DNA from: Deltaproteobacteria bacterium CG11_big_fil_rev_8_21_14_0_20_45_16
GTDB taxonomy: Bacteria; Bdellovibrionota; UBA2394
Direction of reading: 5' to 3'
Length of the DNA: 64,000 nucleotides
Assembly (NCBI GenBank): GCA_002787535.1
Contig: PCXB01000050.1
Coordinates: 8,205 to 72,204 of the forward strand
Shown here: positions 9,675-28,232 of the stretch, piece by piece
How the letters are laid out: every line of letters begins with the position of its first letter
How positions within the stretch are numbered: the stretch's first letter is position 1
Position numbers and translations under genes: made by a program
Notes under the pieces: generated by a model
The model's input: the letters and a program-made list of their open reading frames with translations, nothing else
Database searches by the model: none
Told to the model about the DNA's origin: nothing

Positions 9675-10055
9675 TTGTGGAGCGCAGCGTTCTCGATTAA
9701 AAGGCTGTTTATGGCGTTTCAAGCAAAACGAAAATATACGAGAAAGACAGGCCGAGAAGCCGTTAAAATCCTCAGCCAACGAGGCGTTGAATATGCGACT
9801 TTTGAGGATATCAGCGCTGGTGGCCTGAAGTTATGGATGGATCGAGCGATAGAAGCTGGTGAAGTTATGCGAGTGGAATTTTTGCTACCTTATGTGGGGC
9901 ACGGCCGACATTTGGGATTAGAAGTCGACGTTCAAGTGGTGCGCTGTATCAAGCGTGATAAAGCCTTTGAAGTAGGCGTCAAATTTTTAAAGCTCACTGA
10001 CTCAGAGTGGCAGCAGCTCGAAACCGCGGTCGACTGTACGAAAGGAAACTTCTAA
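9675..10055 (+). CDS. PilZ-domain c-di-GMP receptor
   Basis: RKYTRKTGR (RxxxR-like) followed by EDISAGGLKL (DxSxGG), the bipartite PilZ c-di-GMP binding signature. The start may be the Met at ~9711. Confidence 0.7.
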   Translation: MWSAAFSIKRLFMAFQAKRKYTRKTGREAVKILSQRGVEYATFEDISAGGLKLWMDRAIEAGEVMRVEFLLPYVGHGRHLGLEVDVQVVRCIKRDKAFEVGVKFLKLTDSEWQQLETAVDCTKGNF

Positions 10056-10081: not shown

Positions 10082-10804
10082 TTGTTATTTTTGCGACGTT
10101 CACGATTAAGTTCGATCAACTCAGTAACCGTTCTCACAAGTATCTCATGGCTCATTTTAACTGCAGCCTCCCCATGGCAAAACTCAAGCTCGCGGCGTTC
10201 ACCCTGGCAACTGGATGGGCGAGATCCAGATCGTAAAGAAAGACGAGAAAGTTTTTTCAAAGGCTTAAATTTCTTTAATGCTAAAGACGATTCCCCGAAC
10301 ACTCCTGCTACGAGACCTGCCATTCAATCTGACACTTCTTCGATTGAGCCAACTCCAGAGATCAAAGAACTTCCCTGGCAGGATTATCAAAAAGGCTGGA
10401 CGGCGGGCTATGATAGCTTTTTTTATTGGCCGGTTGAAAATCCGAAAATTTCCTCAGGATTTGGTGTGCGAGAAGGGAAGTTTCATGAAGGTTTGGATTT
10501 GCGCGGTGGGAGTGGCCAAAAGATTCGTAGCATTGGCAGCGGACGTGTTGTCTTTAGTGGCGTCATTAATGGTTATGGCCAAACCGTTGTAATTTATCAT
10601 GGCGCGGGATTGAGTAGTGTTTACGCTCACAACCGCGAAAACCTTGTCAAGAAAGGGCAGCTTGTTGAACGTGGAAAAGTGGTCGCGACCGTAGGATCAA
10701 CCGGTCATGCTACAGGTTCACATTTGCATTTCGAAATTCGCAAGAATGGTGAGCCCGAAAACCCGCTTCGATATCAATTTAGAGAGTTGAGTATTAAGGG
10801 TTAA
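10082..10804 (+). CDS. M23 family (LytM-like) peptidoglycan endopeptidase
   Basis: The C-terminal domain carries ...GLDLRGGSGQKIRSIGSGRVVF...GSHLHFEIRKNGEPENP, the HxxxD/HxH metal-site arrangement of M23 peptidases. The N-terminus is ambiguous: a signal-peptide-like ORF sits in another frame (see findings). Confidence 0.75.
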   Translation: MLFLRRSRLSSINSVTVLTSISWLILTAASPWQNSSSRRSPWQLDGRDPDRKERRESFFKGLNFFNAKDDSPNTPATRPAIQSDTSSIEPTPEIKELPWQDYQKGWTAGYDSFFYWPVENPKISSGFGVREGKFHEGLDLRGGSGQKIRSIGSGRVVFSGVINGYGQTVVIYHGAGLSSVYAHNRENLVKKGQLVERGKVVATVGSTGHATGSHLHFEIRKNGEPENPLRYQFRELSIKG

Positions 10805-11431: not shown

Positions 11432-11764
11432 ATGATGGATACACCAAGTATCAAGCGCCGCTATCTACGCAAGGATATTGTTGTGCCGGTTCGCTTTGAG
11501 TGGGAGGGTGAGCAGCGCTCCTGTTTGACTACTACCTTAGGTGAGGGTGGGCTTTATGTTCACAGTCTTTTGCCACCGAGTTTGGGGACGCGATTGGAGT
11601 TAGAATTTGATCTTCCCGGTGTTGGTCAAGTGAAAGTGACGGGCGAAGTCAGGCATTCTCTCGAAAATACCTATGGCTCCCTGCCTTCTGGCTTTGGGGT
11701 TCAGTTTTTGGATCTGAGCGAGGCGGATCGCGAAAAGATCATTCAATATGTTACGACCGAGTAA
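11432..11764 (+). CDS. PilZ-domain protein
   Basis: KRRYLRKDIVVPVRF (RxxxR region) and TTLGEGGLYVHS (D/NxSxGG-like), consistent with a single-domain PilZ c-di-GMP binder. Confidence 0.65.
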   Translation: MMDTPSIKRRYLRKDIVVPVRFEWEGEQRSCLTTTLGEGGLYVHSLLPPSLGTRLELEFDLPGVGQVKVTGEVRHSLENTYGSLPSGFGVQFLDLSEADREKIIQYVTTE

Positions 11765-11832
11765 GTCTCGGACCATTTTTTTGTTCTTTTCCGGGCAAAA
11801 TTCGTGTTACTTGAGCGAAGTTCTTATCTGAG

Positions 11833-11903
11833 GGCGGCATGGCCAAGTGGTAAGGCAAGGGTCTGCAAAATCCTCATCGCCGGTTCGAATCCGGCTGCCG
11901 CCT
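11833..11903 (+). tRNA. tRNA-Cys (anticodon GCA)
   Basis: Manual fold of 71 nt. Acceptor GGCGGCA/TGCCGCC (7 bp), D-arm GCC-AAGTGGTAA-GGC, anticodon stem AGGGT/ATCCT with loop CTGCAAA (anticodon GCA), variable loop CATC, T-arm GCCGG-TTCGAAT-CCGGC, discriminator T. CCA is not encoded. Confidence 0.85.
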
Positions 11904-11928
11904 TAATAGCAAGCACATTACAAAATCC
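11893..11928 (+). repeat. Direct repeat copy 1 (36 bp) spanning the 3' end of tRNA-Cys
   Basis: ggctgccgccttaatagcaagcacattacaaaatcc starts in the tRNA acceptor 3' strand. An identical copy lies 98 bp downstream. Confidence 0.8.
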
Positions 11929-11990
11929 TCATCGCCGGATTCGAACCGGGGACCGGTTCGTCCGACCTTTAGGTCGGCCTTTGGCCGAAC

Positions 11991-12026
11991 GGCTGCCGCC
12001 TTAATAGCAAGCACATTACAAAATCC
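11991..12026 (+). repeat. Direct repeat copy 2 (36 bp), att-like duplication of the tRNA-Cys 3' end
   Basis: An exact repeat of 11893-11928. The 62 bp between the copies contains an inverted T-arm-like box (ccggattcgaaccgg) and small hairpins. Confidence 0.8.
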
Positions 12027-12073
12027 GGACCGGTGGAATATGAGTCAAAAGCACATTCCTTAGGAATGTGCTG
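12027..12073. repeat. Conserved hairpin element, copy A (GCACATTCC-TTA-GGAATGTGC)
   Basis: ggaccggtggaatatgagtcaaaagcacattccttaggaatgtgctgg has a perfect 9-bp stem at 12051-12071. On the minus strand the stem is followed by TTTTG, giving a terminator-like context 6 nt after the NTase gene stop. Related copies are at 15010-15068 and 44806-44846. Confidence 0.7.
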
Positions 12074-12076
12074 GCT

Positions 12077-12724
12077 CTATGCCTTTCTATTCAAAAAAGC
12101 TTTTCTTATTTTCTTTGAAGCCTTCACTAGTTGAGATGGCACCAATTTTTCGACTGACAAAGGCACTTCGATTTCCAAGGCAATCATCTGTGAAACTATA
12201 TAGCCAAGATCCGCCTTTGGTTGAGATTCAAAAATTGCCTTTATATCATCAGCGTCTGCAAATCTCGTCGAATCGTTAGACAAAGAATAGAACTTGGCGA
12301 TGATCATATCTTCGAGAGTCAAGCAAGGTATTTCCAAACTGCCAAACTTGAGCACATTGCTTTGAGCTCTATCCAATGCTTTTTGAAACCACGGCATCGC
12401 TGGAAGAATAAAATCAATACCCACATGACCCTCTTTTCTCCCAACCAAAATATAAAGTGGGGATGACTTCCTCCTGACCACATGCTTTGGGCCTCCTTCA
12501 AGATTTGCCTTGCGAGCTTCTCGAATTTGAAGATTGAAGTCCGTCAGAATTTTCCTGGCGGCGCCTTCCGAGCTAGTTTCCGAATAGATCAAGAAATCAA
12601 GATCGTCAGTTGTTCTCTTATTCTTCCGATAGGTCGAGCTCGCCAAGCCTCCCGCGAGAGCAAATAAAAGCCTTTCCTCCCTCAGACGTTCGACCAGAAG
12701 TCTAGCTTGCTCAACGAGATCCAT
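12077..12724 (-). CDS. AbiEii-like nucleotidyltransferase (putative toxin / abortive-infection effector)
   Basis: 215 aa. The N-terminal LFALAGGLASSTYRKNKRTTDDLDFLI matches the hGG-x-A...Y...R-x-[ST]-x-D-[IL]-D-[FL] core of AbiEii/DUF1814-type polymerase-beta-fold NTases. Its start overlaps the stop of the upstream wHTH gene (12724). Confidence 0.6.
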   Translation of the reverse strand: MDLVEQARLLVERLREERLLFALAGGLASSTYRKNKRTTDDLDFLIYSETSSEGAARKILTDFNLQIREARKANLEGGPKHVVRRKSSPLYILVGRKEGHVGIDFILPAMPWFQKALDRAQSNVLKFGSLEIPCLTLEDMIIAKFYSLSNDSTRFADADDIKAIFESQPKADLGYIVSQMIALEIEVPLSVEKLVPSQLVKASKKIRKAFLNRKA

Positions 12725-13116
12725 TAGCGACTCGATGAAAATAATTGATTAACAGATTGTGCAAATTTATGAGCCTTTGTTGCTTCAGGTTGATGCGTGA
12801 TCGATCTAATTTTTATTTCAGATTTTTCAATTTGCGCAAATATATTCTTTAGTTCCTCATAAAGTGGGTGGCTTTGGTCCATCTGAAACAAGCGATTGTG
12901 CTTGGAGGGGGAATCGCGAACAATTTTTTGCTTTGACAGTGCGTCTAGAGCAACGACTACGGATCGGATCGGTAAATTGAGTAGATTTGCGACTGTCCTA
13001 AGCGGGATGGGTTGCGAGTATTGAATCAAAAGTTTTAGTACCTTGAATTTAGCCCTAGAACTAAAAATGTCAGCGATCTCAGTCATTACTTTTGTATTGT
13101 ATAATATTTTATACAA
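12724..13116 (-). CDS. Winged-helix DNA-binding protein (putative AbiEi-like antitoxin/regulator)
   Basis: 130 aa with an HTH-like region (...PLRTVANLLNLPIRSVVVALDALSKQKIV...), the first gene of a two-gene unit with the NTase. The start is either TTG at 13116 or ATG at 13086. A perfect palindrome overlaps the 5' end. Confidence 0.5.
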   Translation of the reverse strand: MYKILYNTKVMTEIADIFSSRAKFKVLKLLIQYSQPIPLRTVANLLNLPIRSVVVALDALSKQKIVRDSPSKHNRLFQMDQSHPLYEELKNIFAQIEKSEIKIRSITHQPEATKAHKFAQSVNQLFSSSR

Positions 13117-13183: not shown

Positions 13184-14914
13184 CTACCTTAGGTTCGGTC
13201 GAATACATCCCGGCTGTGGTATGCAGGATCGCACATTCTTCGTGTTTCTTGAATCGACTCCGTACATCGGCACACAAGCGAGCTTCGGGTTATAGGGAGA
13301 CTCAAGAGATACGACCTCCATAGCGCCCCAGCCTTTTGACGTGATCATATCAGCCATTCCATCATTATCGAGATCCGCATAGGTTGGCGGATATCTTTCG
13401 CCAAAAGACGAAGAGGGTGGGATAGCCTTATAGTTTTTGAGAGCAAATGGAAACCCGCGAAGTGACTGACCAAATCGGTTAAAGGCAAACAGCGCATATT
13501 GATGATCTCCGATAGTTGCTGTGCGGAAACTGTTGAGAGCGATCCCGTAAATATCAGGATATCCATCGCCATCAAGATCGGCGACTCCCAAATTTGTCAT
13601 ATAGGAATAAGGAGGAATGGGACTATTCCAGGTATCCCAAATATCTCGTGGAAAACCTGGCAGAAATGTACCGTTGGAATTTGCTGCAAATACTCTGGTC
13701 GAATCTTGATAAACAATCTGCTGGCTTGCCGAGAAGAAATTAACTAATGCCGCATCATGCGAATAAGTATAGGCTTGCTGAGTACGAAAGCGAGATATCT
13801 CTTTCCCTGATTTGCGGTCAAATATGATCATTTCATAAGGGTAGGAGGGTGGAACGGTTACTATTGAGTTGGCGATAAGCTCACGCCTCCCATTGCCATC
13901 AAGATCGCCAATCATCGGGGGCCGCATATTGTTGGGACCCATATCGTTACTCCACTGAAGATTGCCAAAATAATCATAAGAATTTATGCGATTGCCGTAT
14001 CGAACATCGTAAGGATTAACACTTGCAACAATCCCCATAGCATCGACAGCGGGTTCCAAGAATCGATTGCCAACATTCAGTTGAATCGGCCAACCAGAAA
14101 TAGGAGTTCCATCTCCTCGAAATGCGTACAATCTTCGGCCGCCGTCGGGGTGATTGTTACTCCATCCATAATCAGGAATGAGAATATCGCTCTTACCGTT
14201 ATGGTCTAAATCCACCAAAACAGGATGATTCGAATCGCCACCAGAGAATCCAAGATCCGGACGAATTTCGCTTAGAATCTGTCCAGAATTTGACAGAACA
14301 ATAATCCCGCCGTTAACATCCGCCGACTCATTCCGTCCCGTTGCAACAACGATTTCGGGACGGTAGTCGCCAATAACATCAGCGATTCCAACAATAGATA
14401 AATAACCACATAAATAGGGAAAACTAACGGAATCTAAGATGACGGGAAATCCAGGAAGAAGATTGCCTTGCGAATCCCAAGCATAAACTCCCTGAGGAAC
14501 TAAGGTCGCACAATTCCGAGTCATATCCGCACTAAGCAAAACAGACACGATTTGTTTCCGACCATCAAGAAATAAGTCAGCGATCTTTGGCTGAGTAAAG
14601 GTTCCCGAACCGGGGCCGTCAAGCATATAAAGATCGAATTTGTGAACCGGGCCTTGATACGACGTGCTACAAGCCAAACCTTCAGGCGAGAATTGAAGGG
14701 CATCTGGTAAGAACTCGGAATTTTGATGTTCAGTTAGGGATTGAAAGTTCGGAGGTCTTACGGCATTCGATACGGAATTCACTAGGACTTCGTCTTCTCG
14801 CCCCAGTTGAATGAGTGTTTGTAGGTCTGCGGCATTTAGGACGTAACTTTCCAAAAAGCCTGACCCGCTAGTCAGAAAAACTAAATTCAATAGGACTAAA
14901 ATTAGGGGTTTCAT
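13184..14914 (-). CDS. Secreted FG-GAP/integrin-alpha-like beta-propeller repeat protein
   Basis: 576 aa with signal peptide MKPLILVLLNLVFLTSGSG. It has multiple D-x-D-x-D-G Ca-binding-like repeats (DLDHNGKSD, DLDGNGRRE, DLDGDGYPD, DLDNDGMAD) spaced as in FG-GAP/VCBS propellers. Confidence 0.6.
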   Translation of the reverse strand: MKPLILVLLNLVFLTSGSGFLESYVLNAADLQTLIQLGREDEVLVNSVSNAVRPPNFQSLTEHQNSEFLPDALQFSPEGLACSTSYQGPVHKFDLYMLDGPGSGTFTQPKIADLFLDGRKQIVSVLLSADMTRNCATLVPQGVYAWDSQGNLLPGFPVILDSVSFPYLCGYLSIVGIADVIGDYRPEIVVATGRNESADVNGGIIVLSNSGQILSEIRPDLGFSGGDSNHPVLVDLDHNGKSDILIPDYGWSNNHPDGGRRLYAFRGDGTPISGWPIQLNVGNRFLEPAVDAMGIVASVNPYDVRYGNRINSYDYFGNLQWSNDMGPNNMRPPMIGDLDGNGRRELIANSIVTVPPSYPYEMIIFDRKSGKEISRFRTQQAYTYSHDAALVNFFSASQQIVYQDSTRVFAANSNGTFLPGFPRDIWDTWNSPIPPYSYMTNLGVADLDGDGYPDIYGIALNSFRTATIGDHQYALFAFNRFGQSLRGFPFALKNYKAIPPSSSFGERYPPTYADLDNDGMADMITSKGWGAMEVVSLESPYNPKLACVPMYGVDSRNTKNVRSCIPQPGCIRPNLR

Positions 14915-15009
14915 TTTACGACTCCTTCCAATTAATTCAATTTCAGCCTGCCATCGCGCCGTTCTACTAACGACATATCATGGCCTTCCCTGGATGTGCA
15001 TTTGGCTGC

Positions 15010-15068
15010 GGATTCGAACCGGAGACCGGTGGAATATGACTCAGAATTACATTCCAAAGGAATGCTCG
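15010..15068. repeat. Conserved hairpin element, copy B, with T-arm-like box
   Basis: ggattcgaaccggagaccggtggaatatgactcagaattacattccaaaggaatgct aligns base-for-base with the split copy A (box 11937-11956 plus hairpin 12027-12071). It lies immediately after the stop of the minus-strand gene ending at 15071. Confidence 0.65.
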
Positions 15069-15070
15069 AT

Positions 15071-15445
15071 TTAGCGTTTTCTCCGCGTTTTAGATTTCTT
15101 TCGCTCTTTGGGAGTGATGCCCAATCGTCGGTCGGCGCGCTTAATGGCGCGGATTAGTTTTTGTGCTTCCAGCTCAAAGTTTTCACTGTCGGAACTTAAA
15201 TACAACCATTTTTTAAGAATGGGATGTTGTTGCAAACAATCAAACTCACCGAGCAAACTTTCATGATCTTCAAAATCAACTGGAAATAACAGGCCGCGCC
15301 ACGGTGCTTCGGAATCCGCCATCACGAGGACCATCAGTCCGTGCAAATAGATGGCTTTGCAGCCAAACATTCTCTTGGACAAATAGGAATCCAGATCCGT
15401 CAAATCTTCAATTAAATAATCGAGGCTATGAGTGAGAGCGGCCAT
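15071..15445 (-). CDS. TfoX N-terminal-domain-like protein
   Basis: 124 aa. The KRMFGCKAIYLHGLMVLV segment resembles the K-x-MFGG-x-x-x-Y core of the TfoX/Sxy N-domain, and the protein has a basic C-terminal tail. Confidence 0.4.
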   Translation of the reverse strand: MAALTHSLDYLIEDLTDLDSYLSKRMFGCKAIYLHGLMVLVMADSEAPWRGLLFPVDFEDHESLLGEFDCLQQHPILKKWLYLSSDSENFELEAQKLIRAIKRADRRLGITPKERKKSKTRRKR

Positions 15446-15580: not shown

Positions 15581-16282
15581 ATGAGTTTGATGTATGTAGT
15601 ACTGAGCAGTTATTTTATGATTACCGAAATTTCTGATGACGACGGATATTATCGGGTCTGGAGTTCAGATCCCAGCTCGATCTCGGCTGTTGCGAGCGAT
15701 GAGGCTCTTGAGCAAACGATTAAAATTCAGGTCGATCGACTGGCAACAAATGAAACTTGGAAGTTTAAGTTCAAAAGTGGCACGGAATTCCTAACCAAAG
15801 GCCATGGAAGCTTTAGTATCATTCAAAGACTGGAGGCTACCGATGGCACTATGTCTTGTAATCGCGGACTTCCAAGCTATACAACGGTTACCGATTTGGC
15901 GGACATTATTAACTCATGTCCTTTTGTTAGAGCCGTAACTTACAATACTGGAGATGGTTCAAAGCGTCCTTTTGCCTTATCGATTCAGGCGACTTGGCGA
16001 TTGGGCAAAATTCACTCGGATAACACGCCTGGTAAAAATTTCAATTTGAAATTTGTCGGCGAAGGAATGATAACGCGAGTCTTTGAAAATGCTAAACCTT
16101 TGTTTGAGGGGCGTGACGCTAAAATTTATCTCAATGGGGATCTGCATTCTCCCATTTTTTTTGATTCCAACCTAGTCACTGGAATCATTCCAGGCGTGGA
16201 CATTCGCCTTAAGCAGCCGACGACAATGCCGGTCACACTGGTTCATGATAAGTCGAAGGATAAGTACTGCACGCAAGATTGA
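15581..16282 (+). CDS. Hypothetical protein
   Basis: 233 aa ORF with a good RBS (agggag, 8 nt upstream) and no recognisable motifs. Confidence 0.45.
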   Translation: MSLMYVVLSSYFMITEISDDDGYYRVWSSDPSSISAVASDEALEQTIKIQVDRLATNETWKFKFKSGTEFLTKGHGSFSIIQRLEATDGTMSCNRGLPSYTTVTDLADIINSCPFVRAVTYNTGDGSKRPFALSIQATWRLGKIHSDNTPGKNFNLKFVGEGMITRVFENAKPLFEGRDAKIYLNGDLHSPIFFDSNLVTGIIPGVDIRLKQPTTMPVTLVHDKSKDKYCTQD

Positions 16283-27406: not shown

Positions 27407-28232
27407 GGGGTCAGGGCGGTTAAGTGCCAGGTAATCTTATATATGAGCTTTCCGGAAAGTTGCATAGATTTTCGGTTTATGGATGAAAAAGTGGATCAAC
27501 ATCCTGAATTGCCCGGCATTGGGGTGGGATTGCGAATTGCATTATGTTCTCAGATAATGTCACGAACAAGACGCCTCGAAATGCCTGGCGCCTACTATCA
27601 TATAATGAACCGTGGTCTTGCCAAGCAAACCATTGTTTTTGATCACGCCGATTTCGATTACTTTACTAAGGGCTTGAAGGAGATTTCAGAACTCTACGAC
27701 GTAGAGATTTTTGCCTATTGTTTGATGAGTAACCATTATCATCTGCTGATTAGAACGCGCATACCCAACTTATCACGGGCGATGCGCCACTTTGGTCATA
27801 CTTTTACGCAACGAGTCAATCTACGTGTTAAACGAGACGGCCCACTTTTTCGTGGGCGATTCAAGTCGCTATTGGTTTGTGATGATTCTTATTTGCTTCA
27901 ATTAGTCCGCTATATTCATCGTAATCCCGTGAAGGCCGGAATTGTTGAGAGAGTCCGAGACTATGAATGGTCGAGTGCTTTAGGCTATGAAAGCCCCAGT
28001 TTTCCAGTATGGCTCTCGCGAGATGAAATTCTTAGCAGATTCAATAGTAACAGGAAGTCAGCTTCCAAGGCTTATTGTGAGTTTGTTGAAAACGAGAGCT
28101 CGGGGGAGCTTGAAGCTTTTTATTCACGTCAAAGGCTCGGAGATCGCTTAACGGAAGAACGAATTCTTCGTGCTCATGAAAATGCAATTAAAGAAGGTCG
28201 GAGCTTACCTGGCACTTAACCGCCCTGACCCC
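27407..28232 (+). mobile_element. 826-bp element: RAYT/IS200-like Y1 transposase gene flanked by perfect 27-bp inverted repeats
   Basis: Left repeat GGGGTCAGGGCGGTTAAGTGCCAGGTA (27407-27433) and right repeat TACCTGGCACTTAACCGCCCTGACCCC (28206-28232) are exact reverse complements. No target-site duplication is visible. The element disrupts the MATE gene on one side and supplies the last 14 codons of the hydrolase gene on the other. Confidence 0.75.
27557..28219 (+). CDS. Y1 HUH tyrosine transposase, IS200-like / REP-associated (RAYT-like)
   Basis: YYHIMNRG...CLMSNHYHLLIRT holds the HUH motif HYH. VRYIHRNPVKAGIV matches the YIHxNPVKxG catalytic-Tyr motif of RAYT/IS200-like proteins. The ORF track starts at 27443, but the family-typical start is MSRTRRLEMPGAYYH at 27557 (in frame). 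Confidence 0.7.
   Translation: MSRTRRLEMPGAYYHIMNRGLAKQTIVFDHADFDYFTKGLKEISELYDVEIFAYCLMSNHYHLLIRTRIPNLSRAMRHFGHTFTQRVNLRVKRDGPLFRGRFKSLLVCDDSYLLQLVRYIHRNPVKAGIVERVRDYEWSSALGYESPSFPVWLSRDEILSRFNSNRKSASKAYCEFVENESSGELEAFYSRQRLGDRLTEERILRAHENAIKEGRSLPGT

Follow-up and report, generated by a model that had tools for sequence, protein, structure and literature searches.

Repeats of a tRNA 3′ end are routinely read as integration scars and are used to delimit genomic islands. The tRNA-Cys locus described here, from the Deltaproteobacteria bacterium CG11_big_fil_rev_8_21_14_0_20_45_16, raises the question of whether the repeat behind the gene is such a scar or a feature that the lineage has kept. 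It lies in a stretch of 64,000 nucleotides of contig PCXB01000050.1, hereafter the window, in whose positions coordinates are given unless another locus is named. A sequence-only reading of this DNA had taken the two copies of the tRNA end, about 100 bp apart, as attL/attR-like scars of site-specific integration, suggesting excision or deletion of a former element or serial integrations. Our comparison of related loci favors a different view: we give even odds (a probability of roughly 0.5) to an old, selected and structured element that is tethered to the tRNA gene and probably acts in the 3′ trailer of the tRNA-Cys transcript, a function that we infer.

The gene itself, a tRNA-Cys(GCA) of 71 nt, occupies positions 11833-11903 of the plus strand (ARAGORN; 65.8 bits to the tRNA family of Rfam); its discriminator is T, and CCA is not encoded. 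A repeat finder confirmed the duplication of its 3′ end and extended it by one base over the 36 nt reported from the sequence alone, to an exact direct repeat of 37 nt, CGGCTGCCGCCTTAATAGCAAGCACATTACAAAATCC. The proximal copy (DR1, 11892-11928, plus strand) comprises the last 12 nt of the tRNA and 25 nt of flank, and the distal copy (DR2, 11990-12026, plus strand) matches it exactly at a distance of 61 nt. The 25-nt flank alone recurred by chance in 0 of 100 shuffles. A second exact repeat, overlooked by the sequence-only reading, is 18 nt long: tRNA positions 34-51, CAAAATCCTCATCGCCGG, at 11866-11883, recur at 11921-11938. Read from left to right, the locus consists of the 5′ part of the tRNA and a 55-nt unit (the 3′ half of the tRNA with 17 nt of flank), which is repeated as 98 nt with the T-loop swapped for about 50 nt of hairpins, followed by CAAAATCC. 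The T-arm of the tRNA, CCGGTTCGAATCCGG, is an almost perfect palindrome.

For the orthologous loci, the window was compared with a sister species (L013, NYN protein 88% identical to that of the window) and two more distant species, L027 (GCA_044351695.1, PilZ protein 71% identical) and L032 (GCA_964433805.1, PilZ 69% identical), with L026 and L028 as outgroups. What the four species share is a tRNA-Cys-linked module, which in the window spans 68 nt of the plus strand (11934-12001). It is separated from the tRNA by an A/T-rich plus-strand spacer of 30 nt (11904-11933), whose length is kept and whose sequence is not; in the window and L013, tRNA positions 34-51 are copied in direct orientation at the 3′ end of this spacer (11921-11933, running to 11938). 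The left end of the module is a flipped (inverted) copy of the T-arm, GCCGGATTCGAACCGG (11934-11949), as the sequence-only reading had recognized. That reading was also right about small hairpins between the repeat copies, although they number three rather than two: H1 (CGAACCGG-GGA-CCGGTTCG, 11942-11960), H2 (CCGACC-TTTA-GGTCGG, 11962-11977) and H3 (GGCC-TTT-GGCC, 11976-11986). The right end is a direct, plus-strand copy of the last 12 nt of the tRNA, CGGCTGCCGCCT (11990-12001). The RNAalifold consensus for the four species places a short closing stem round the three hairpins, followed by a single-stranded tail, UGCCGCCU. Only the two ends of the module, the inverted T-arm and the 12-nt 3′ end, are derived from the tRNA, and in L027 and L032 the inverted T-arm reaches 2-3 nt further, into the acceptor. 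The middle consists of GC-rich hairpins without tRNA similarity; in either orientation, its 36 nt align with the tRNA no better than shuffled sequences do (p ~0.65).

The gene order M23 peptidase, NYN, PilZ and tRNA-Cys is conserved among the related loci. The PilZ protein of the window matches PIR22716.1, from a CG11 Deltaproteobacteria metagenome-assembled genome, at every residue, and its relatives carry the annotations Bacteriovoracaceae, Bradymonadales or Deltaproteobacteria. A module of 66-68 nt lies about 30 nt behind tRNA-Cys in the window, L013, L027 and L032, and the outgroups keep the PilZ-tRNA-Cys synteny and have no module. In a PilZ tree the module carriers form one clade, with L026 and L028 outside it. 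A covariance model of the module (R1) scored 93-98 bits on the four copies and gave no further match in 145 kb of sequence. Identity across the deep split (the window or L013 versus L027 or L032) is 96% in the tRNA, 85-88% in the module, 40-57% in the spacer and 42-52% in the 60 nt upstream; over all six pairs, the corresponding ranges are 96-100%, 85-96%, 34-73% and 42-92%. Spacer and flanks are largely unalignable between the deep lineages. Spacer lengths are 30, 30, 32 and 30 nt in the window, L013, L027 and L032, respectively, and the starts of the two tRNA-end copies lie 98, 98, 98 and 96 nt apart. These values do not support a scar left by recent excision or deletion, because the insert is conserved in four species at nearly the level of the tRNA, while the spacers have diverged to 34-50% identity between the deep lineages. 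When empty sites are sought, the 96-98 nt unit is present in L013 and in both of the more distant species, and only the outgroups are without it. In the comparison of orthologous tRNA-Cys loci that had been proposed as a check, a 12-nt core copy of the tRNA end is seen in four species; the 25-nt flank is not found in the sister L013.

This gene order does not hold everywhere. In L021 (276-1227), whose PilZ protein is the nearest relative beyond the species pair (81% identical), no tRNA-Cys comes after the gene, and a convergent gene of 196 aa stands 22 nt past PilZ.

Within the module, most of the differences lie in hairpin loops. Across the four species, 13 of the 70 alignment columns vary, comprising 3/44 paired and 10/26 unpaired columns (Fisher p=0.003), and among the hairpin-loop columns the count is 7/10. 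The H1 loop reads GGA in the window (11950-11952) and TCC in L013 (4434-4436), between identical 8-bp palindromic arms; as the two triplets are exact reverse complements, the difference is a hairpin-loop inversion. In L027 and L032, H1 closes on a tetraloop. Among the four modules, the loop of H2 is TTTA or GAA. The closing pair of the module mirrors the T-stem of each species' own tRNA, with G-C in one deep lineage (window, L013) and C-G in the other (L027, L032), and the tRNA-derived ends likewise match the resident tRNA, as GCCGG..CGGC in the first lineage and CCCGG..CGGG in the second. Within a 10-bp hairpin, A.C and G.U in L027 correspond to A-U and G-C in L032, the result of two substitutions. 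By the measures usually applied to structured RNAs, conservation exceeds that of the flanks, and only one covarying pair and the two pair-improving changes in L032 are found among four sequences from two deep lineages.

The flanks that make the repeat so long follow a different pattern. The sequence common to both tRNA-end copies extends for 25 nt in the window, for 14 nt of unrelated sequence (GATCTTCAATCAAC) in L027 and for 2 nt in L013, and L032 has no common flank. Because the 25-nt flank is not in the sister L013, it is not a conserved att core. The spacer behind the tRNA agrees between the window and L013 at 17/25 positions (a manual count on the alignment), the window spacer resembles the L013 distal flank at TTACAAAA only, and the 18-nt copy of tRNA positions 34-51 is exact in the window and 16/18 in L013. 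The simplest account that we infer from these patterns, and the one that best explains the flank identity, is local gene conversion of the distal copy by the tRNA-proximal one. The shared tRNA end and the TTACAAAA patch would serve as its anchors, and it would have occurred independently in the lineages of the window and L027. In the window it would have run 25 nt into the flank, leaving the exact 37-nt and 18-nt repeats; in L027 an event of its own would have produced the 14-nt flank. Gene conversion would also account for the 18-nt copy and for the co-variation of the module ends with the tRNA, since the tRNA-like ends would be overwritten repeatedly from the tRNA 55-98 nt upstream.

The sequence-only reading had held that its interpretation would fall if the repeat were absent from all related tRNA-Cys loci and attributable to an assembly artefact, for example collapsed reads. 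Exact-protein look-ups of the two flanking genes led to seven metagenome assemblies (two ENA and five JGI samples) in which positions 11833-12080 are identical. Upstream, these assemblies fall into two haplotypes, which differ by C or T at 16 nt ahead of the tRNA. Identity across separate samples and on both haplotypes excludes collapse or mis-assembly, and the same architecture recurs in three other species, each assembled independently. Contigs L004, L005, L009 and L014 do break within the tRNA, and two of them, L004 and L014 (samples 3300004209 and 3300004208 of one series, from two species), both stop at ...GCCGGTTCGA. The breaks are explained by sister species that co-occur in the samples and share an identical tRNA, an explanation that also removes them as a sign of an occupied site. 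A collapsed or chimeric repeat is accordingly given next to no weight.

A scan for intrinsic terminators found none on the plus strand between 11904 and 12080; the only one detected was that of the PilZ gene, upstream, at 11757-11771. As no canonical terminator separates them, the tRNA and the module are predicted to be co-transcribed, probably as one precursor. We propose that the module began as a displaced or duplicated 3′ fragment of the tRNA, was remodelled by fold-back copying at the near-palindromic T-arm and has since been kept by purifying selection; the one hairpin loop that is still flipped between the window (GGA) and L013 (TCC) would be a trace of that remodelling. Origin as a displaced tRNA fragment appears plausible from the sequence, given that the distal copy is direct and reaches into the T-loop with a 2-nt gap, which matches the general model of a regenerated tRNA and a displaced fragment at an integration site (PMC4383910). 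As a cis-acting structure in the trailer transcript, the module would delimit the trailer or make it more stable, and would influence the 3′ processing of a tRNA that lacks an encoded CCA. The anti-T-arm (16-19 nt complementary to the tRNA) and the acceptor-strand copy may also allow the precursor a competing fold. For the window precursor, a strongly favored alternative fold is predicted (-76.5 kcal/mol, z=-3.7), with the tRNA paired to the anti-T-arm and to the distal acceptor strand; of the long-range pairings between tRNA and module, only that of the anti-T-arm survives across species.

Other structural interpretations were set aside. Antisense pairing of the whole module with the tRNA, as suggested by the minimum free energy fold, fares poorly in L027 and L032, where substitutions weaken the D-arm pairing and local hairpins are kept or improved. 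A second tRNA or pseudogene on the minus strand was considered because GGCGGCA stands at the start of the reverse complement, which also contains a canonical T-arm; it has no acceptor partner and no anticodon loop. On either strand, neither ARAGORN nor Rfam reported a second tRNA, and in both orientations the middle resembles tRNA positions 8-48 no more than shuffled sequences do. A bolder reading, for which we see little probability, holds that the module is a novel functional RNA fused to the tRNA-Cys transcript, a 3′-trailer element of tRNA origin. By means of the anti-T-arm and the additional acceptor strand, the precursor would switch between a processable cloverleaf and a locked long-range fold, or these two parts would mimic a tRNA end for enzymes that process or modify tRNAs; in both cases the module would control the maturation or supply of tRNA-Cys.

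Beyond the module, the region behind tRNA-Cys is a variable hot spot between species. In the window, a block of 3 kb that is absent from L013 (12077-15008, minus strand) encodes an AbiEii-like nucleotidyltransferase (12077-12724; Pfam 1.6e-08), a partner of 120-130 aa with weak matches of winged helix-turn-helix type to the PADLOC models PDC-M05A and Csa3 (12724-13116) and a 576-aa FG-GAP repeat protein (13184-14914; Pfam, NCBIfam and PADLOC scans). In L013, the ortholog of the window gene at 15071-15445 follows the tRNA region directly, and the block may be either an insertion in the window lineage or a deletion in L013. It is bracketed by imperfect direct repeats of 41-56 nt. The left one (12027-12072) begins with GGACCGGT, a second copy of 11950-11957, and continues with GGAATATGAGTC and the hairpin AGCACATTCC-TTA-GGAATGTGCT, which is followed on the minus strand by a T-run and is the probable terminator of the convergent gene. 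The right copy, R (15009-15064, CGGATTCGAACCGGAGACCGGTGGAATATGACTCAGAATTACATTCCAAAGGAATG), corresponds to 11936-11957 (95%) joined to 12028-12068 (85%). More precisely, GACCGGTGGAATATGA and the hairpin are 85% identical between 12028-12068 and 15024-15064, and in front of the right copy stands CGGATTCGAACCGGAGACCGGT, a 95% match to 11936-11957. R is therefore the left region minus the 77 nt between the two GGACCGGT octamers, and, once 15003-15008 are included, it has the form of the tRNA T-arm plus the beginning of the acceptor strand in inverted orientation. The sister species differ by a second indel near the tRNA: the 233-aa open reading frame at 15581-16282 has an ortholog of 138 aa in L013 (3380-3796) that keeps both ends and is missing the middle.

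The outgroup L026 has an 80-aa/PIN gene pair after its tRNA-Cys. There, the 3′ end of the tRNA forms the left arm of a perfect palindrome of 16 bp, or about 24 bp if near-perfect pairs are counted (10460-10520; arms GTGCCGCCTTTTGATA...TATCAAAAGGCGGCAC), a different way of placing an inverted tRNA-end copy behind the gene, with the 80-aa/PIN pair next to it.

Contig ends provide a further set of observations. The L027 contig ends just past the distal tRNA-end copy (9853-9879), and a contig of GCA_041442895.1, from the same species, appears from its gene table to end about 300 nt after PilZ; these ends hint at a repeat or variable DNA beyond. Logan contigs (k=31) from three related species (L022-L025) stop in tRNA-Cys at sequential positions 37-39 (...CTGCAAA), where the anticodon loop ends on its 3′ side. 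That all of them stop there implies a branch of the assembly graph, which may reflect either another continuation or a repeat that begins near tRNA position 8-10.

The window also contains a gene for a REP-associated tyrosine transposase (RAYT) of 258 aa (27443-28219; Pfam Y1_Tnp; NCBIfam score 82 bits, cut-off 80), flanked by 31-nt inverted repeats (27407-27437 and 28202-28232, 97% complementary) that occur nowhere else in the window. The module is unrelated to these repeats, and it was rejected as a REP of the local RAYT; a dispersed repeat or miniature inverted-repeat transposable element was likewise rejected, with no further copy of the module in 145 kb of window and loci searched. An integron attC site, IS200/IS605 ends and a T-box were set aside, as their core motifs are missing on inspection and no partner gene was present among the scanned open reading frames.

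Several observations weigh against a selected element in the tRNA trailer. No module hairpin is followed by a U-tract, and the module is not a canonical intrinsic terminator. In Rfam 15 only the tRNA passes the threshold, all other matches falling far below it at E-values of at least 0.18, none of them a family for the module. Sequence inspection indicates that the pairing of the module middle with the D-arm is not kept in L027 or L032. Under the consensus fold, the four sequences contain no double compensatory change within H1-H3, and the one covarying pair may be simply copied from the tRNA. The hairpins are palindromic, so that plus and minus strands fold about equally well, and the sampling covers two deep lineages only, each a close pair. 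The R copy shows that parts of the module also join in DNA rearrangement. Chief among the rivals is a long-lived recombination site serving unseen elements. Here the distal copy would be the displaced fragment (attR) of a tyrosine-integrase island that had entered tRNA-Cys, the module the arm of the element beside the core, and the pair still a landing pad, which would explain both the variable downstream cargo and the repeated re-creation of identical flanks. The distal copy is indeed direct and, with the 2-nt gap, extends into the T-loop (CGAA--CGGCTGCCGCCT); a further copy, seen in the window and L013, begins in the anticodon loop. T-loop and anticodon loop are the two classic sublocations of crossover. 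In 4/4 species the module directly abuts the distal copy, the other side being free spacer. The defence-like block between its 41-56 nt repeats, missing from L013, and the PIN-type pair behind the L026 gene also speak for this rival, as do the ends of the L027 contig, of probably the second contig of that species and of the Logan contigs, just past the distal copy or in the anticodon loop. The att-like interpretation retains the direct orientation of the distal tRNA end and the variable region behind the tRNA, but not the flank as an att core, nor an integrase, nor an attP. No integrase was found in Pfam scans of 26 open reading frames of the window, nor any in the Pfam gene tables fetched for the flanks of L026, L028 and L032; the only recombinase-like gene among those scanned in the window is the RAYT, 15 kb away. 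A third copy of the tRNA end is absent from the 64 kb. The 25-mer flank, the tRNA 3′ half, the module core and the R copy had no match in IMG/VR, and blastn against phage and plasmid collections gave none either, so that these viral, phage and plasmid collections hold no attP-like match. Three high-GC phage contigs from one viral scan share the T-arm-like motif only and were taken as chance. Scanning genome contigs with the 29-mer of the tRNA 3′ end returned one unrelated Planctomycetota metagenome-assembled genome with a plain locus, and a metagenome scan returned only two contigs, both already in the comparison set. The DNA between the repeats is only 61 nt long, and it is hard to see why a host would keep the arm of an element at nearly the level of its tRNA beside a spacer that has diverged to 34-57% identity. 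To our knowledge, arm-type sites are not normally GC-rich hairpins with variable loops. We therefore regard the recombination site as possible but rather unlikely.

We rank still lower, as improbable, a neutral origin, in which duplication and template switching at the T-arm made a functionless array of tRNA fragments and the apparent conservation reflects sparse sampling and gene conversion from the tRNA. The near-perfect palindrome of CCGGTTCGAATCCGG, the H1 loop inversion that separates the window from L013 (a mutational signature of hairpins) and the clear exchange of sequence between module ends and tRNA are all in keeping with such an array, as is a module with no match to a known RNA family and no terminator signature. 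However, the 36-nt middle has no template in the tRNA and is nearly invariant where spacers and upstream sequence are 40-57% identical, the spacer length (30-32 nt) and repeat spacing (96-98 nt) are held, and substitutions avoid stems. It is the conservation of both the non-tRNA middle and the spacing that makes the neutral array less likely.

Comparison with known systems helps to place the element. Like the attL/attR islands of the Islander type (PMC4383910), the locus has an intact tRNA with a direct copy of its 3′ end, boundaries in the T-loop and anticodon loop, and variable defence-type cargo beside the tRNA. It differs from them in having no integrase and no island between the copies, just 61 nt, and in that this DNA is conserved at nearly the level of the tRNA, with the spacing fixed at 96-98 nt and the flank part dependent on lineage. 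With the REP/BIME elements mobilised by RAYT proteins it shares short GC-rich intergenic hairpins and a RAYT gene in the window, yet the module is single-copy in 145 kb, tied to one tRNA locus and unrelated in sequence. A functional tRNA 3′ trailer is exemplified by the leuZ 3′ external transcribed spacer of E. coli, which acts as a sponge for small RNAs. Similarly, the module is conserved sequence directly 3′ of a tRNA in the same probable transcription unit, but it is made of tRNA-derived pieces (anti-T-arm and acceptor-strand copy), and no small RNA partner is known. Small inversions of hairpin loops in non-coding DNA are well known from chloroplast spacers, and the GGA/TCC difference in H1 resembles them, as does the module T-loop, which is flipped relative to that of the tRNA; such inversions account for the sequence change and not for the retention of the module.

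The tRNA-end repeat at this locus brackets a short sequence conserved almost like the tRNA itself in a neighbourhood that can barely be aligned. The exact repeat would stem from local homogenisation and not from a recent element, so that the logic of island finding would here produce a false call. If the module acts as DNA, it would be an unusually long-lived recombination site; if it acts as RNA, it would represent a rare tRNA-derived cis element that controls the transcript of its own tRNA, in a poorly known clade of predatory type.

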